Positions 12,730 to 27,944 of a stretch of 64,000 nt of DNA are shown here, in pieces. A model generated the notes under the pieces. The model ran no database searches. It was not told the origin of the DNA and saw only the letters and a program-made list of their open reading frames with translations. The position numbers and the translations under genes were made by a program. Source of the stretch: Clostridiales bacterium (GTDB lineage Bacteria; Bacillota; Clostridia; Christensenellales; JAISNN01). The stretch covers positions 5,643 to 69,642 of the forward strand of contig JAITOU010000027.1 of NCBI GenBank assembly GCA_031289755.1, written 5' to 3'. Within the stretch, counting starts at the first letter, position 1. Each line of letters opens with the position of its first letter.

Positions 12730-12860
12730 CTTTTTGCCATACGGCAAGAGAAATTGACCGGCGTCGGGATAACTAAATTTGCCTTGCGGCAAGTGAAATT
12801 GACTGCGTCAGTGAAGTTCGGCAGAGCCGAGTGAAATTGCGGCGGTCGCCGCAGTTATTG
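12730..12860. repeat. cluster of short GC-rich hairpins, each preceded by a GWGAAATTG-like word
   Basis: Hairpins: ttgccatacggcaa, (agagaaattg)accggcgtcggg, ttgccttgcggcaa, (gtgaaattg)actgcgtcagt, cggcagagccg and (gtgaaattg)cggcggtcgccgca. The cluster lies between convergent genes. Confidence 0.5.
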
Positions 12861-20215: not shown

Positions 20216-20605
20216 GGAAAAAAATATGAGCTTACAGCATGAAATCACAGAAAATAAAAATTGTTTTTTGCCAAAGTACGAAAGAAAATAAGAAAATGCA
20301 ATTTAATATCCGTAAAACAATTGACAAATAGCAAATTTTATAATAAACTATAAAAAGAATAAAGACACAAAAGAGTTATTTATGAAAAATGTAAAAAACA
20401 CGGCAATAATCAAAGAAAAATACGAAGGAAAACGCGATATAATATCAGCTATATCGGGGGGGGTACACCTATTATATAGCCGTATTTTATAATGCGCTAA
20501 AACAATTTAATATATTATCAAAAAATCAAAACAATTCCGGTTTTTCACTTAGGTGAGATAACGGAGTTGTTTTTTTGTTATAAAAAAAATGCGGAGGACA
20601 AAAAG

Positions 20606-21634
20606 ATGTGTTTTACACGGCAAAAAAACTTAACCTTCGGCGGCAATACCGAGCATATCGCTTGGGTATATGACGCGAGCGGCGACAGACGCTTATCGGT
20701 TTTTGCGGAAAGTCCGCATGAGGTATTGTGCGTCAAGGACGGCGCGTTCTGCGAAACGTACCGCAATCAAAAGGCGGTGCTTAGTAACAAGCGAAAGGAC
20801 GGACTGCTAAAGCTGTATTTTGTCAACGTCAAGCTGCCTATGAGCGACACTTGGGGTACGCAGGAAAGGTACGAATACAAGGACGCAAAAACGGGACGCA
20901 TAATCGGCATAGGCTGCCGCGGCAGTTATGCCTTTCATATCTGCGACAGCAAAAGCTTTATCGAAAAGATTTTCGGCATACAAAAGCTCATGACAAAAAC
21001 CGAGCTTTCAAGCATAATGAAATCCAAGCTGATGGACGAAATGAGCGACCATTTTGTGTCGGCTCTCGTCAACGAAAATATTTCTTATGAAGAATTAGAC
21101 TTATCCCGGAAGACGATTGCCAAAAGCTTTCTTCCGATTTTAAATACGTCTTTTGAAAAATACGGTATACACGTCGAGGAATTTATCATCGAAGGCTTTG
21201 ACAAGCCGGAAATATTGAGAGACAGGAGCAATAAAAACGTTGACAAGGCGGAGGATTTTGAGGATATCACGACGGACAACGAGCGAAAATCCGAGCTTCT
21301 CAAGCAATACGCAGGACTCGAAAAGCAACAAATGGAGCTTTCGGAGACGAGAGCGACGCATTCTGGAAACTTAAAGCGGATTCAAGCCGCCGCCGATAAA
21401 GACGTAGAAAAGACGGGCTATGAAGCTAAGGAGATGACTTACAAAGAGCTAAGAGAGCAGGACAGAGAGGACATCGGCAATATTGCCGCCGCCGAAGCAA
21501 AGGTGAGAGAAGCGACAAAAATTCCGGAAGTGACGGTGATAGCAAACGCCGCACAAGACGGCAAATGTCCGCATTGTGGGGGAGCGGTTACGGCAAATCA
21601 GATTTTTTGCCCGACGTGCAGAAGAAAGTTGTAA
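20606..21634 (+). CDS. SPFH-like (COG4260/YdjI 'virion-core-like') protein with a C-terminal zinc ribbon
   Basis: ATG at 20606 has GGAGGA 7 nt upstream. A globular N-terminal ~200 aa is followed by a charged coiled-coil segment. The terminus is CPHCG-x10-CPTC. Family assignment is by recollection of the YdjI architecture. Confidence 0.7.
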   Translation: MCFTRQKNLTFGGNTEHIAWVYDASGDRRLSVFAESPHEVLCVKDGAFCETYRNQKAVLSNKRKDGLLKLYFVNVKLPMSDTWGTQERYEYKDAKTGRIIGIGCRGSYAFHICDSKSFIEKIFGIQKLMTKTELSSIMKSKLMDEMSDHFVSALVNENISYEELDLSRKTIAKSFLPILNTSFEKYGIHVEEFIIEGFDKPEILRDRSNKNVDKAEDFEDITTDNERKSELLKQYAGLEKQQMELSETRATHSGNLKRIQAAADKDVEKTGYEAKEMTYKELREQDREDIGNIAAAEAKVREATKIPEVTVIANAAQDGKCPHCGGAVTANQIFCPTCRRKL

Positions 21635-21663
21635 TAAAAAATAATATATAGGGAGCAAAAAAA

Positions 21664-23748
21664 ATGGATACAATAAAGGTCAAATGTACTACGTGCGGTG
21701 CGCAGTTGTCGCTGTCGGAGTCGGGCAAGACGGCAGAGTGTCCGTATTGCCACAATTTCTATGTGGTGGAGACCGCCGAAAAGCTCAATCACGTCGCGGA
21801 CGAAAAGACGGGCAAGCTCAAAAACCTGAAAAAGCAATTAGACGGAGCGGTCGGCGTCAACGACGTACGGAATATGTCAAAGCACGCTTCGGCGATTCTC
21901 GGCATAAATCCGTCGGACTATACGGCGGTATATTACCATGCCTACGCGGAGCGCGCGCTCGGCAAGAGCGCGTATCTCTATGACTTCTACGCAGCCGCGC
22001 CTTTGGCTCATACGGAGAACGAGCTGCAAGAGATAATCGGGCATATCAATCTTTACAGCGATTTGAGAGAGCGGTCGAGAGTAGAGACTTTTTTGATGTC
22101 GCTCGGCGATATCGACAAGGAGCGCACGATAACCGAATACCGCCGCGAGTTTAAAAGGCGTGAGACGTTGGAGCAGCTTTATGACGATATTCCGCGCGAC
22201 GTCTTTGTCTGTCACAGCAGCAATAATAAGAGCGACGCGGAAGACGCGGTATCGGCTTTGGAGAACGACGACAATATTTGCTGGATTTCCACAAGGAACT
22301 TGCGCCCGAACGATTCGGAAAACTATTGGTCGGATATCCGAAAGGCGATAAGGTCCTGCGGAATATTTTTGGTCGTTTCGGGAGCCGATGCTATGATCTC
22401 AAAGGACGTCAAGCAAGAAATCGAGCTTGCGCGAGAGCTTGGCAAGCCGCGCTTAGAATTTAAAATCGACGGCACGCCGCACACGCCGAAATTCAAGGAT
22501 TTTTTTGACGGTATAAAGTGGGTGGATGCTATCGGCGGACAGCGGTCGGTCGCGCTTCTCGAGCTTTGCAGGCGGGTATACGACGAAAAAGAAAAGCTCT
22601 TGAATAAGGACAAGAAGCCGAACGAAATAGAAGAAATCAAACGGCTGATACAAGAGCAAAAGACCGTCGCGCCGGTTGTCAAGCATACGGAGTATGCCGC
22701 GTCTTACGCTATGAACGAAGAGGCACTTTTAAAGAAAGCAAAGCTGCAAATCGAAGAGGGGGATTTTGCCGGCGCAAAAATAACCTGCGATAAGATAAGC
22801 GATATCAACATAGAATGCGCCGAGTTGTGGATAGATTATCTTTTGATTGAATACGAAAAGAAAAATCTCAGCCTATTTAAGACTTTCGATTTTATCTATG
22901 ATTATGAATCAAATTATGCGATATGGAATGAGAGAGAATATAAAAATGCGATAAAGTTTGCAAACGCCGCCCAAAAAGAAGAGCTTGAAAGTGTAGCGGA
23001 AGAGATAAGAACTAGAAAAAAAATTGCGGAAAATGTAGCCCAATACGACAAATTCGAGAAAGTCCTTTATGGAGAAACGGCAATACAAGAAGCTTTTGCT
23101 TATGAACCTGTTTACTCAAAAAAAGTGGACATCGGCAACAAAATAGTTGAATATATCAACGATTTAAAGAAAGTGTCTAGTTTCGAGTCATATTCCACCG
23201 ATTTAATTGATGATGCCGAAGGATTTAAAAATAGTCTAATAGATAAATATAGTGACCGAGATGAATGGGAAAGCCAGGCATGCAATATGGAAGGTAAAGG
23301 TACAAAATCAGAGAAATTTAAAAGAATAGAAGAATTTTACACTCAAAGAATTAAATTTCTTAACTTATGGTTTCATAACGGCAAAATTCTTTTAAATCCG
23401 AGAGAAGCAATGGACGAAATATTGGAAGAGGTAAGACTTGAGAATGAAAGCAGCGAAGAAGAGGAAAGAAGAGAAAGAAGAGCGTACTTAAAAAAACGTA
23501 AAAAAAGAGGTTTATTATATTGTATCCCATGGTTTATTTCTCTAATAGCAACAATTATAGCTCCTATATATGGTATGTTACTGGCTGCACTTAGTGTCTT
23601 CGCTTCCATTCCTTTATTTATCGTTGCAACGGTATACAGACATAATCAACTATGGGACGGAAAGAAAAATCCGAGAAGAATGCATATATGGATAATAAAT
23701 ATCGTTTTGGTTGTTACAACTATATTATTGCTATCACCTTATGCATAG
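21664..23748 (+). CDS. zinc-ribbon / TIR-domain / helical-repeat protein with C-terminal transmembrane helices
   Basis: 694 aa. N-terminal ribbon is CTTCG-x14-CPYC. The TIR-like core is DVFVCHSS...DAEDAVSALE...ICWISTRNLRPN...IRSCGIFLVVSG...SKDVKQEIELA. The C-terminus has a KKRKKR patch plus 2-3 hydrophobic helices. Confidence 0.8.
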   Translation: MDTIKVKCTTCGAQLSLSESGKTAECPYCHNFYVVETAEKLNHVADEKTGKLKNLKKQLDGAVGVNDVRNMSKHASAILGINPSDYTAVYYHAYAERALGKSAYLYDFYAAAPLAHTENELQEIIGHINLYSDLRERSRVETFLMSLGDIDKERTITEYRREFKRRETLEQLYDDIPRDVFVCHSSNNKSDAEDAVSALENDDNICWISTRNLRPNDSENYWSDIRKAIRSCGIFLVVSGADAMISKDVKQEIELARELGKPRLEFKIDGTPHTPKFKDFFDGIKWVDAIGGQRSVALLELCRRVYDEKEKLLNKDKKPNEIEEIKRLIQEQKTVAPVVKHTEYAASYAMNEEALLKKAKLQIEEGDFAGAKITCDKISDINIECAELWIDYLLIEYEKKNLSLFKTFDFIYDYESNYAIWNEREYKNAIKFANAAQKEELESVAEEIRTRKKIAENVAQYDKFEKVLYGETAIQEAFAYEPVYSKKVDIGNKIVEYINDLKKVSSFESYSTDLIDDAEGFKNSLIDKYSDRDEWESQACNMEGKGTKSEKFKRIEEFYTQRIKFLNLWFHNGKILLNPREAMDEILEEVRLENESSEEEERRERRAYLKKRKKRGLLYCIPWFISLIATIIAPIYGMLLAALSVFASIPLFIVATVYRHNQLWDGKKNPRRMHIWIINIVLVVTTILLLSPYA

Positions 23749-23832: not shown

Positions 23833-23861
23833 TTGACACAGTTTGGAAAATATGATATATT
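23833..23861 (+). promoter_or_regulatory. sigma-A-type promoter with extended -10
   Basis: ttgaca at 23833-23838, a 17-nt spacer ending in tga, and tatatt at 23856-23861. Confidence 0.55.
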
Positions 23862-23974: not shown

Positions 23975-24169
23975 ATGGCAGATAAAACTTTGAAGTGCAA
24001 AGATTGCGGCGCAGATTTCGTTTTTACGGAAAGCGAGCAGGCTTTTTACAAAGAAAAAGGCTTTGAGAACGAGCCGCAAAGATGCGTTCCTTGCAGAAAA
24101 GCAAAGAAAGCTCAGCGTAACGGCGGCGGCGGCGGATACGGTTCTTACGGCAACGACAGACGCAGATAG
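23975..24169 (+). CDS. small zinc-ribbon protein (CxxC...CxxC, zf-trcl-like) with a Gly-rich tail
   Basis: LKCKDCGADFVFTESEQAFYKEKGFENEPQRCVPCRKAKK followed by NGGGGGYGSYGNDRRR. GGGAGGGAGA lies upstream. Confidence 0.7.
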   Translation: MADKTLKCKDCGADFVFTESEQAFYKEKGFENEPQRCVPCRKAKKAQRNGGGGGYGSYGNDRRR

Positions 24170-24204: not shown

Positions 24205-24234
24205 AAAAACATGCTGAACAGGCATGTTTTTTTA
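24205..24234 (+). terminator. intrinsic terminator
   Basis: Hairpin aacatgc-tgaacag-gcatgtt followed by a T-run. Confidence 0.65.
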
Positions 24235-24271: not shown

Positions 24272-24300
24272 TTGACAAAAAGCGGTATTGTGGTTATAAT
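24272..24300 (+). promoter_or_regulatory. sigma-A-type promoter (TTGACA-N17-TATAAT)
   Basis: ttgaca at 24272-24277 and tataat at 24295-24300. The -10 hexamer is the start of the first 16-bp repeat unit. Confidence 0.6.
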
Positions 24301-24390
24301 AAACTTATCAGATAATAAACTTGTCAGATAATAAACTTGTTAGATAATAAACTTGTTAGATAATAGACTTGTTAGATAATAGACTTCTTG
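24295..24390. repeat. 16-bp tandem repeat x6 ending in a solo family-1 element terminus
   Basis: Units are tataataaacttatca, gataataaacttgtca, gataataaacttgtta (x2), gataatagacttgtta and gataatagacttcttg. The last runs into tagacttcttgcaaacctaacttcgcaatctaag (to ~24415), which matches the family-1 end. Confidence 0.85.
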
Positions 24391-24443: not shown

Positions 24444-25610
24444 ATGTATAAAAAATACGATATCGAAACCGGAACATGGTCGGCAAGCGCGCTTGTCATG
24501 ATAGTTGTCGGGGGCTTTCTTTTCTCGATGGTTTTGATTGTCTTGCATTGGCTTGTATGGCTTATCTCTTTTGCATTGCTCATCATATTATTGCGCAAGC
24601 AAATCGTATATGTATCCAAAGCCTATACGACCGCAAACAACGGCAGGCTGACCGACGGCAAGGTGACAAAGCTCAACGAACGGCGCAATCCGAACAACCC
24701 AAACGGTCCGAGAAAATACAAAATATCCTTTGAATATTATATCGACGGCGGCAAAAAATCTAAGGCGGGAACGACCGAATGGCTGCCCTTTACGGCGGTC
24801 GGCTGCGCGTATTTTGTAGGCAAAAAGATAAAGGTGGTATATACGGCTACCGACTCGGTTATTATCAAAAAAATATATGACAAAGCCGGTCTTTGCATAT
24901 ATCCCGACACGGCGGCAACGACCGCCGCGCCTTTGATAAGCACGGCTTTAAATAATCCGAAGCCTGCCCCTAAGCCCGACGGCAAGGCGGTACTCATAGG
25001 CGCGGAAGGCGTAGGAATCAAAAAGACCGCAACGGGCAAGATAGCGGAGGATTGGGATTACTTGGCGGCGTTGCCGGGACTTATGGACGAGCATGAAACG
25101 CACAGAAAAATTGTCGGCGACCTTCCCGAAATGGAATTTGGAAACAGCGGAGTAGGCGGAGTGGCATTGCCGCCGCCCGACTTCGGAACGCCCGTGTCCG
25201 ACGCTTCGTCGGTGCGCGATTATGTCAAGCCCGATTATTTGAAGCCTTTGAGCTATGTAAGTCCGGCAGGAGCAGGCACTTCCGCCGACCTGCGCTACGG
25301 TAAGCCGGTTTATTCCAAGCCTTCGGGCTACGGCTCTTTTGTAGAACAGAAGCCTGCGCCGTCTTTGCAGGCGCAGAGTGTAGCCGCGCCGAAAGCTGCG
25401 CCGACGGTCAAGACCGCTTCGGTAAAAATATCCGCGATAAAGGACAAATACGCCACGGTGGAATTGCTGTCCGTCGAGCTTGGTATGTCCAAGTACGACG
25501 TGAGAGAAAAAATCGAATTGTCGCCGACACCGATATTCGCCGTCAAGGACGCGGCGGCCTTGTCTCAAAAGCTGTCATATATCGGAACAAAATCCGAGAT
25601 TGTAAATTAG
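24444..25610 (+). CDS. hypothetical membrane-anchored protein; the C-terminal ~60 aa resembles the ribosomal L7/L12 C-terminal fold
   Basis: 388 aa. Two N-terminal TM helices are followed by a small beta-rich module (KVTKLNERRNP...KYKISFEYYIDG...KIKVVY), then a long Pro/Ala-rich linker. The terminus is ATVELLSVELGMSKYDVREKIELSPTPIFAVKDAAALSQKLSYIGTKSEIV. Confidence 0.55.
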   Translation: MYKKYDIETGTWSASALVMIVVGGFLFSMVLIVLHWLVWLISFALLIILLRKQIVYVSKAYTTANNGRLTDGKVTKLNERRNPNNPNGPRKYKISFEYYIDGGKKSKAGTTEWLPFTAVGCAYFVGKKIKVVYTATDSVIIKKIYDKAGLCIYPDTAATTAAPLISTALNNPKPAPKPDGKAVLIGAEGVGIKKTATGKIAEDWDYLAALPGLMDEHETHRKIVGDLPEMEFGNSGVGGVALPPPDFGTPVSDASSVRDYVKPDYLKPLSYVSPAGAGTSADLRYGKPVYSKPSGYGSFVEQKPAPSLQAQSVAAPKAAPTVKTASVKISAIKDKYATVELLSVELGMSKYDVREKIELSPTPIFAVKDAAALSQKLSYIGTKSEIVN

Positions 25611-27731: not shown

Positions 27732-27944
27732 ATGGCAGGCTCGGCGAGATACGAAATCAAAAAGGTCAAAAGAAAGAACGGTAATCATTTTGTTGACGAA
27801 TACGTCTTTTCATTGATTGCTGCAAACAATAAGGTTCTTGCGGAATGCGAAGAGTCTTATTCGACAAAAGAAGCCGCTATCAAAGGCATAGAGGCACTCC
27901 AAAAAATCGCCGTATCGGCGGACATCAGGGATTTGACTGAATAA
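27732..27944 (+). CDS. YegP/DUF1508-family small protein
   Basis: 70 aa. YEIKK...YVFSLIAANNKVLAECEESYSTKEAAIKGIEALQK fits the DUF1508 repeat pattern. AAGGAG lies upstream. Confidence 0.65.
   Translation: MAGSARYEIKKVKRKNGNHFVDEYVFSLIAANNKVLAECEESYSTKEAAIKGIEALQKIAVSADIRDLTE

Follow-up and report, generated by a model that had tools for sequence, protein, structure and literature searches.

A conserved bacterial gene pair joining a YdjI/SamI-type SPFH protein to a predicted membrane-anchored TIR protein

In Bacillus subtilis, the soluble protein YdjI/SamI is recruited by the membrane proteins YdjG and YdjH and in turn localizes the ESCRT-III homologue PspA (PMC8581546; PMC11237479; bioRxiv 10.64898/2026.02.06.704340). 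The architecture described for YdjI/SamI is a Band-7 domain with a C-terminal zinc ribbon (PMC11237479), and SamGHI has been reported to sense membrane stress and to influence both transcription and development (bioRxiv 10.64898/2026.02.06.704340). A protein of SPFH-coiled coil-zinc ribbon type is also found in archaeal ESCRT loci (the 'Meth_adaptin' systems), and Makarova et al. (2024) have argued for an ancient link of ESCRT-III with SPFH proteins (PMC10936438). Here, we describe a pair of adjacent genes in a 64,000-nucleotide stretch of contig JAITOU010000027.1 from a Clostridiales bacterium, referred to in the following as the window. The first gene of the pair (gene 1) encodes a YdjI/SamI-type SPFH protein and the second (gene 2) encodes a zinc ribbon-helical-TIR (Toll/interleukin-1 receptor) protein with a predicted membrane anchor. 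The pair is built from known parts; it is the combination of SPFH with TIR that is new.

TIR domains are the enzymatic core of an immunity that is common to bacteria, plants and animals, while SPFH proteins and ESCRT-III polymers are shared machinery that organizes and repairs membranes. To our knowledge, no bacterial system that connects TIR domains with the SPFH/ESCRT-III machinery has been described. Full-text literature searches for SPFH together with TIR, NAD+-cleaving (NADase) activity or defence, and for TIR together with ESCRT-III in bacteria, found no precedent. The papers on YdjGHI/SamGHI and on the archaeal ESCRT loci do not mention a TIR partner of the Toll/interleukin-1 receptor type, the 'Tir' of PMC11237479 being the CesT/Tir chaperone.

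Both genes lie on the + strand, gene 1 at 20606..21634 (342 aa from an ATG start preceded by the Shine-Dalgarno sequence GGAGGA) and gene 2 at 21664..23748 (694 aa). They are separated by the 29-nt spacer TAAAAAATAATATATAGGGAGCAAAAAAA (21635..21663, + strand), which on direct reading contains the ribosome-binding site AGGGAG, and a terminator scan found no terminator-like site on the + strand between the two genes. An earlier note on this DNA had described two co-directional open reading frames with a 29-bp gap, an AGGGAG site and no terminator, and both the reading and the scan bear this out. The gene 1 protein is 100% identical to a public entry, 'MAG: SPFH domain-containing protein [Clostridiales bacterium]' (P0036; MAG, metagenome-assembled genome), whereas the assembly index has no exact record for gene 2. 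The pair was sighted a second time on a contig from a separate sequencing run (L029). Gene 1 is the only SPFH gene in the window.

The conservation of the pairing was assessed in 41 loci encoding relatives of gene 2, of which pattern scans retrieved 22 from species-representative genomes and 19 from metagenomes (loci are numbered with the prefix L); their open reading frames were called crudely and clustered by BLASTP. An SPFH homologue lies one to six genes from the TIR gene in 25 of the 41 loci by clustering, and a 26th (L020) was recognized by tblastn. The two genes are on the same strand in 24 of the 25, and overlaps or gaps of 1-30 nt are frequent in the collected loci. The SPFH-positive loci come from uncultured Clostridia, Izemoplasmatales/Mycoplasmatota, Bacillales, an Elusimicrobiaceae MAG and others, and they show four gene orders. 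With an assumed background of 10% per locus, described as generous, the binomial probability of this co-occurrence is P <1e-16, so that the co-localization of the two families beyond chance, on which the earlier proposal depended, holds. Gene 1 and gene 2 are one conserved, co-transcribed pair.

The four gene orders differ in how much accompanies the core. In layout I, an XRE-type helix-turn-helix gene is followed by a long, ribbon-less SPFH gene and then by four genes, whose products are a coiled-coil protein of 343 aa, an ESCRT-III-like protein of 194 aa, the TIR protein and an ATPase of the classical AAA type. Layout II consists of a TIR protein without a transmembrane (TM) segment, a 275-aa zinc-ribbon two-TM protein, an SPFH protein with a ribbon and a helical protein of ~105 aa. 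Layout III consists of the TIR protein, an SPFH protein with a ribbon and the 105-aa protein. Layout IV has an SPFH protein with a ribbon, optional small proteins and then the TIR protein; it includes the window pair, which is the most reduced form. A tblastn search of the window for homologues of the ESCRT-III-like, AAA, ~100-aa, zinc-ribbon two-TM and 200-aa neighbours found none, so the window carries the two-gene core only. A membrane anchor is always present, either in cis or through an adjoining zinc-ribbon two-TM protein.

Gene 1 is a cytosolic YdjI/SamI-type (COG4260) SPFH protein, as had been proposed from the sequence. It matches Pfam Band_7_1 (PF13421) over aa 70-207 with an E-value of 3.8e-14 and 53.3 bits (cut-off 24), and the hydropathy scan found no TM segment in any member of its cluster. 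The AlphaFold2 model (pLDDT, the predicted local distance difference test, of 75) comprises an SPFH alpha/beta domain, about 100 residues of helix and a terminal ribbon. The SPFH domain occupies aa 1-205 (20606..21220, + strand; pLDDT ~90) and is followed by long charged, coiled-coil-like helices at aa 207-303 (21224..21514, + strand), which are modelled as helices 207-274 and 279-303 with low pLDDT. The zinc ribbon CPHC-x10-CPTC is at aa 321-338 (21566..21619, + strand). Pfam zinc-ribbon models match it only below threshold; its four cysteines (C321, C324, C335 and C338) are invariant across 17 homologues (alignment A5). In Foldseek searches, the model matches subunits of stomatin, HflK/C, QmcA, prohibitin and flotillin, and the alignments to cage- or ring-forming SPFH subunits span ~290 columns, the helix included.

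The gene 2 protein begins with a zinc ribbon, CTTC-x14-CPYC (aa 1-35, with cysteines C8, C11, C26 and C29; 21664..21768, + strand). Both ribbons reported earlier are therefore present, although the motifs as first written had counted the glycine after the first CxxC into the motif and gave spacers that are off by one. A seven-helix domain follows at aa 36-174 (21769..22185, + strand; pLDDT ~90); it has no Pfam or NCBIfam match and, among the loci collected, is restricted to TIR-bearing proteins. The TIR domain at aa 178-310 (22195..22593, + strand) matches Pfam TIR_2 (PF13676) over aa 180-290 (E 3.6e-10, 40.8 bits, cut-off 28). A Foldseek search of the PDB with the model returned the TIR domains of SPARTA, MyD88, MAL, SARM1/TIR-1, AbTir and TRR-2, with target TM-scores of 0.7-0.8 against isolated TIR structures, and the assignment of this central region as TIR stands. 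When PDB sequences were searched by phmmer with the TIR segment, only de novo TIM barrels and MAL were returned, and no TIR enzyme could be usefully aligned residue by residue.

The remainder of gene 2 is helical. A tetratricopeptide repeat (TPR)-like region with an E-L-W motif lies at aa 352-411 (22717..22896, + strand; pLDDT >90) and is followed by long, poorly conserved helices at aa 424-609 (22933..23490, + strand), which have low pLDDT and vary among homologues. The hydropathy scan placed three TM helices at aa 617-691, after a KKRKKR patch (aa 610-615); patch and helices are encoded at 23491..23736 (+ strand). We infer that these C-terminal helices are a membrane anchor and that the N-terminus is cytoplasmic, the orientation following from the positive-inside rule. 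The AlphaFold2 model has a mean pLDDT of 72, with high confidence at aa 1-330 and 352-411. For both proteins the domain layout is the one first read from the sequence.

These features allow a direct comparison with PspA-YdjGHI (SamGHI). Gene 1 shares with YdjI/SamI the Band_7_1 domain, the coiled coil, the C-terminal ribbon and the lack of a TM segment, and its operon partner is a membrane protein which, like YdjG, has a zinc ribbon at its start and a TM segment at its C-terminus. The start of YdjG, MIISYKCPNC (known from a primer; PMC8581546), resembles that of gene 2, MDTIKVKCTTCG, in a comparison that covers the first 10 residues only. The membrane proteins differ: in YdjG, two ribbons are combined with an NTF2-like domain and a TM segment, whereas gene 2 has one ribbon followed by the helical and TIR domains. 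In addition, a Pfam scan found no gene for PspA or a TPM-domain YdjH within ~8 kb on either side of the pair, and tblastn with the proteins of related loci found no ESCRT-III-like homologue in the window.

The family to which gene 2 belongs is large. A word-index search retrieved 35 relatives, in which the similarity is confined to the N-terminal 40-70%, and an exhaustive profile search of 1.84 billion cluster representatives gave 2,126 matches below 1e-30, some of which are proteins consisting of leucine-rich repeats (LRRs) only. The family set used for conservation comprises 138 representatives of 50%-identity clusters, drawn from the retrieved proteins with a near-complete zinc ribbon-helical-TIR module. 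All four ribbon cysteines are invariant (138/138). The glutamate that had been singled out as occupying the catalytic position, E252 (VKQE motif; codon at 22417..22419, + strand), is kept in 137 of the 138, and among the other TIR residues N212 is kept in 138, W207 and S246 in 137 each and D248 in 135. The NLRPN motif in the BB-loop region is nearly invariant, and the polar residues D85, Y90, H127, R135, E170 and Y173 of the helical domain are kept in 116-137 representatives.

In a local alignment with the TIR domain of SARM1, VKQE252 falls on VHKE642 and FDGIKW on FNGIKW, which would place E252 at the catalytic E642. The residue conservation and this motif alignment make the family look enzymatically competent. 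The likeness to SARM1/TIR-1, which is among the top Foldseek matches, consists of VxKE around the catalytic glutamate, the C-terminal FxGIKW and the presence of a helical domain before the TIR domain. Unlike SARM1, gene 2 is bacterial and membrane-anchored and has no SAM domains, and the likeness of the helical domains is not established (r.m.s.d. of 14-25 Å).

Beyond the conserved module, the C-termini of the family are variable. A TM segment follows the TIR module in 98 of the 138 representatives by hydropathy: in 58 a single TM helix precedes a stretch of 100 aa or more, in many cases made up of BspA-type LRR_5 or immunoglobulin (Ig)-like domains that are presumably extracellular, 18 are tail-anchored and 22 are multi-pass, the type to which the window protein belongs. 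The other 40 have no TM segment at the hydropathy threshold used. Many relatives resemble Toll-like receptors: their TIR domain is cytoplasmic, there is a single TM helix, and the C-terminus is a large region of LRRs or Ig-like domains. However, the topology is inverted, with the TIR domain N-terminal and the LRRs C-terminal, the LRRs are of the BspA/LRR_5 type and the window protein has no extracellular domain; the resemblance is one of logic, not of descent. The picture is wider than the one drawn in the earlier note, taking in a large TIR family with variable C-termini and relatives in operons with ESCRT-III-like and AAA genes.

Two or three zinc ribbon-TIR/LRR paralogues stand side by side in several loci (L005 3-5464, L007 451-15891, L012 4549-13413 and L036 4063-11360). 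Some of them are very large (1,500-1,800 aa) and their C-terminal repeat regions differ, which suggests diversification of the presumably extracellular part.

The accessory proteins of the fuller loci were examined by profile methods. With a profile of 28 sequences, the 194-aa family gives a match to CHMP3 that is colinear along 160 residues (E 1e-4), and six of the 28 members are matched by Pfam Snf7 (best E 2.4e-6); by these sequence comparisons the family is ESCRT-III-like. The layout I ATPase has a clear classical AAA domain, and it matches Vps4 at 1.2e-54, with the D2 domain of p97/Cdc48 scoring higher. Since no MIT match was found, and Vps4_C is found below threshold in one member only, the ATPase is not called Vps4. 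Operons that combine XRE-type helix-turn-helix, long SPFH, 343-aa coiled-coil and 194-aa ESCRT-III-like genes with zinc ribbon-TIR genes are found at L012 1004-13413, L032 4456-16865, L030 1805-7323, L036 212-10045 and L041 1025-6750, from an Elusimicrobiaceae MAG and metagenome contigs, and four of these five contain the classical AAA ATPase.

According to a review from 2025, a Vps4-like ATPase 'appears absent in bacteria' (PMC7619361), and set against that statement the adjacency of an ESCRT-III-like gene and a classical AAA gene makes the layout I loci notable in their own right. Ravi et al. describe some transfers in which Snf7 was displaced (PMC11237479). The related bacterial loci resemble the archaeal ESCRT loci in combining an SPFH protein, an ESCRT-III-like protein and a classical AAA ATPase. 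They differ in that the archaeal loci have no TIR protein, and the window itself has neither ESCRT-III-like nor AAA genes. For the 200-aa neighbour (A6), neither profile-profile comparison nor a PDB profile search showed a likeness to ESCRT-III, and the 343-aa coiled-coil neighbour has no recognizable relative in the PDB. The conserved 275-aa two-TM protein, with its zinc ribbon at the N-terminus (A3; L015 7970-8794, L018 3570-4391, L034 3073-3900 and L038 5923-6759), has its gene between those for TIR and SPFH in precisely the loci whose TIR protein lacks a TM segment. The protein has no Pfam or PDB relatives and may be a separate membrane anchor.

The relatives of gene 1 point to a wider use of the N-terminal ribbon. 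Besides the exact copy, the closest are ~38-45% identical, one of them from a Treponema MAG. In five of the six inspected, a partner gene lies 4 nt downstream and its product starts with a ribbon like that of gene 2, with the shared pattern M.LEK..CETCGGQLE...C..CGN.Y.V; in the sixth the SPFH gene is alone. The ribbon-headed partner genes are at L023 9037-9891, L027 8128-8982, L025 5039-6226, L051 1958-3307 and L052 1711-3672. What follows the ribbon is of three types: ankyrin repeats; LRR_5 and ankyrin repeats together with a TPR-like region that has its homologue in aa 350-430 of gene 2; or LRR_5 and ankyrin repeats with an Imm33-like domain. The TPR-like region of gene 2 is homologous to the one directly after the ribbon in the TIR-less partner at L025.

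The N-terminal ribbon is the sole element common to the different partners of gene-1-like SPFH genes. Because the partners differ after the ribbon, the constants of the dyad are the SPFH-coiled coil-ribbon protein and the N-terminal ribbon of the partner, and the payload is interchangeable. From these sequence patterns, the zinc ribbon has the look of an adaptor that can be moved from one SPFH partner to another. The suggestion that the two terminal ribbons share an interaction mode gains indirect support from a ribbon that is common to varied SPFH partners, and is weakened by loci in which a ribbon-less SPFH protein is found beside a ribbon-bearing TIR protein.

In bacterial, plant and SARM1 TIR enzymes, the active site is formed through self-association, and SPFH proteins form large oligomers apposed to the membrane. 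Against this background, we tentatively favour, with rather less than full conviction, a reading in which the pair is an SPFH-organized, membrane-tethered, NAD+-cleaving TIR module that is triggered by membrane disturbance. Gene 1 would probably assemble into a large ring or cage beneath the membrane, like other SPFH proteins. Gene 2 would be held at the membrane by its C-terminal helices, with the ribbon, helical domain and TIR domain facing the cytoplasm, and could tether the SPFH protein to the membrane, as YdjG and YdjH do for YdjI. The SPFH oligomer might then determine how concentrated the TIR domains are locally, or which conformation they adopt. If the membrane is disturbed (by phage entry or lysis, pore formers or envelope stress), the assembly would be altered and TIR self-association would follow; in relatives with ectodomains, ligand binding is a possible trigger of NAD+ cleavage. 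The self-associated TIR domains would cleave NAD+ by means of the conserved Glu252, and the output could be depletion of NAD+, with growth arrest or abortive infection, or else a signal derived from ADP-ribose. Four parts of this proposal are inferred: that the two proteins interact physically, what triggers them, the NADase activity and the physiological role. The diversifying multi-paralogue partners favour a role in conflict; the housekeeping context and the SamGHI precedent favour envelope stress.

Several observations weigh against the NAD+-cleaving module. An SPFH gene was not seen in the flank at 15-16 of the 41 loci; in at least three of these (L001, L017 and L021) the contig ends close to the TIR gene, and L002 and others have full flanks. 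The flanks of the window pair are housekeeping genes, with no defence island or mobile element around the pair, relatives of the TIR module are absent from the phage, plasmid and viral-contig collections searched, and PADLOC returned only a weak ThsB-like match. On account of these three results, nothing speaks positively for a role in defence. Among the closest relatives of gene 1, the partners are ankyrin or LRR proteins without any enzyme domain, so the SPFH protein may serve a function for which TIR chemistry is optional. Ribbon-less SPFH proteins (layout I, L010 and L019) are still found beside ribbon-bearing TIR proteins, so ribbon-to-ribbon contact is not required. Finally, the correspondence of E252 with SARM1 E642 is a lead and not a database result.

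The pair could instead regulate the envelope-stress response or membrane remodelling and have no part in immunity, as a variant of PspA-YdjGHI (SamGHI) and of the ESCRT-III/AAA/SPFH operons. The TIR domain would then report the state of the membrane, through an ADP-ribose-derived signal or local use of NAD+, and tune repair, secretion or differentiation. We consider this possible but doubtful. It draws on the YdjI/SamI architecture of gene 1 (PMC11237479), on membrane stress sensing by SamGHI (bioRxiv 10.64898/2026.02.06.704340) and on the SPFH-coiled coil-zinc ribbon protein that archaeal ESCRT loci also have (PMC10936438), as well as on the housekeeping chromosomal context and the related loci with ESCRT-III-like, AAA and XRE-type helix-turn-helix genes. 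However, no PspA, TPM (YdjH) or ESCRT-III-like gene is near the pair in the window, and no candidate receptor for a TIR-made signal was recognized among the conserved neighbours. The multiple TIR paralogues per locus, with their variable LRR and Ig-like C-termini, look more like a diversifying recognition system.

It is unlikely that the TIR domain has no catalytic role and, like those of MyD88 and MAL, only helps to assemble a higher-order complex with the SPFH scaffold, the glutamate being structural. The Foldseek matches do include the TIR filaments of MyD88 and MAL, and the slot for the SPFH partner can hold pure protein-interaction domains such as ankyrin repeats and LRRs. Against this, the glutamate is retained in all but one of 138 representatives that are no more than 50% identical, together with D248, S246, W207 and the NLRPN loop, a pattern that is typical of enzymatically active bacterial TIR domains, and the best-aligned motifs (VxKE and FxGIKW) resemble those of SARM1.

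Membership of a named TIR defence system whose partner was missed (Thoeris, or an effector of CBASS, Pycsar or SPARTA) is very improbable. The gene 2 protein resembles Thoeris in having a bacterial TIR domain with a catalytic glutamate, possibly making an ADP-ribose-derived signal, and the Thoeris ThsB models do give weak matches (PADLOC, E 0.0067 and 13.9 bits; Pfam ThsB_TIR, E 0.061 and 14.2 bits), but the Pfam score is below the curated cut-off of 21.2 bits. NCBIfam and PADLOC scans of both proteins and of the two downstream genes gave nothing beyond this ThsB-like match. Unlike in Thoeris, the TIR domain shares one polypeptide with a zinc ribbon, a helical domain and a membrane anchor and has a link to an SPFH protein, and no ThsA-type effector (SIR2, Macro/SLOG-TM or caspase-like) was found among the window neighbours or the recurring neighbours of the 41 loci. 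For CBASS and Pycsar, no cyclase, SAVED, STING or cNMP-binding domain was found in gene 2 or its neighbours. In the SPARTA structures only the TIR part aligns to gene 2, over ~145 columns, and no APAZ or Argonaute gene is near the pair. Membership of all four fails because the defining partner features were not found nearby: SIR2, Macro, SLOG, caspase-like, cyclase, SAVED, STING, APAZ and Argonaute are absent both within ~8 kb and from the genes recurring in the 41 loci. The earlier reading that no ThsA-like or other named TIR-system partner accompanies the pair is upheld by the Pfam, PADLOC, NCBIfam and neighbour scans.

A chance adjacency of two functionally unrelated genes, for which it can be said that about a third of the related loci have no SPFH gene in the available sequence, is effectively refuted by the 25-26 co-occurrences across phyla, in four gene orders and with overlaps or 1-30 nt gaps.

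The proposed NAD+-cleaving module would have consequences for several lines of work. The conserved operon suggests how damage to the membrane could activate a TIR enzyme, by oligomerization on an SPFH scaffold, in a way that is open to testing, and the tail-anchored, multi-pass and single-pass architectures, the last with LRR or Ig ectodomains, form a natural series for dissection. The pairing gives a function-linked partner to SPFH proteins of the YdjI/SamI class, which are poorly understood, and points to an 'adaptor', the N-terminal zinc ribbon, that is common to TIR, ankyrin and LRR partners. The related loci supply a bacterial ESCRT-III-like and AAA module of a kind stated in recent reviews to be missing from bacteria, and the wider family is of greater interest than the window by itself. 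A larger proposal, which we put forward as a long shot, is that the window holds the minimal form of a widespread, so far undescribed membrane-surveillance pathway in which membrane TIR proteins, many of them with presumably extracellular LRR or Ig-like domains after the logic of Toll-like receptors, are organized by SPFH cages through the zinc-ribbon adaptor, with an ESCRT-III-like polymer and an AAA ATPase in fuller versions. If true, membrane injury or a surface ligand would lead to TIR-catalysed NAD+ chemistry that is coordinated with membrane repair or scission. Prokaryotes would then have a counterpart to the TIR signalling that takes place at membrane microdomains, and bacteria would have an ESCRT-III/AAA/SPFH machine, although current reviews regard such a machine as absent from them.

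Upstream of gene 1 there is an AT-rich region of 390 bp, within which a consensus scan located a promoter-like site, TTGACA-17-TAAACT (20321..20349, + strand; 10/12), as weak evidence only. A TTG at 20567 is an unlikely alternative start for gene 1. An Rfam search found no RNA element in or beside the pair. The upstream flank encodes a P-type ATPase, a diacylglycerol-kinase-like protein, Sua5 and an MFS transporter, and the downstream flank encodes a zf_Tbcl protein, a 388-aa protein, SmpB, homoserine O-succinyltransferase, DUF1508, phosphoribosyl pyrophosphate synthetase and Rho. In a Pfam scan of the genes ~8 kb to each side, six belong to unrelated housekeeping families, the zf_Tbcl protein is likewise unrelated and the 388-aa protein is without a match.

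The zf_Tbcl gene (23975-24169) encodes a 64-aa protein with a treble-clef zinc finger (PF13451, E 2.3e-24) and a Gly/Arg-rich tail. It has a near-consensus promoter at 23833-23861 and a terminator hairpin at 24205-24231, and it is not conserved next to the TIR family. This gene and the 388-aa gene (24444-25610) were considered as further parts of the module and were rejected because they have their own promoter and terminator and are not conserved beside the TIR family. Just upstream of the 388-aa gene, at 24296-24386, the 16-bp unit ATAATAAACTTGTTAG is repeated in 5.7 tandem copies with 96% matches. The array overlaps several promoter-like sites, and the repeats could be an array of operator sites for a regulator. 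Further out, a Gut-1 RNA (Rfam RF01706, 59.6 bits, above threshold) lies at 12770-12842, beside the P-type ATPase gene, which is consistent with the contig having come from a gut metagenome. The DUF1508 (YegP-like) gene at 27732-27944 encodes 70 aa and lies between the genes for homoserine O-succinyltransferase and phosphoribosyl pyrophosphate synthetase.

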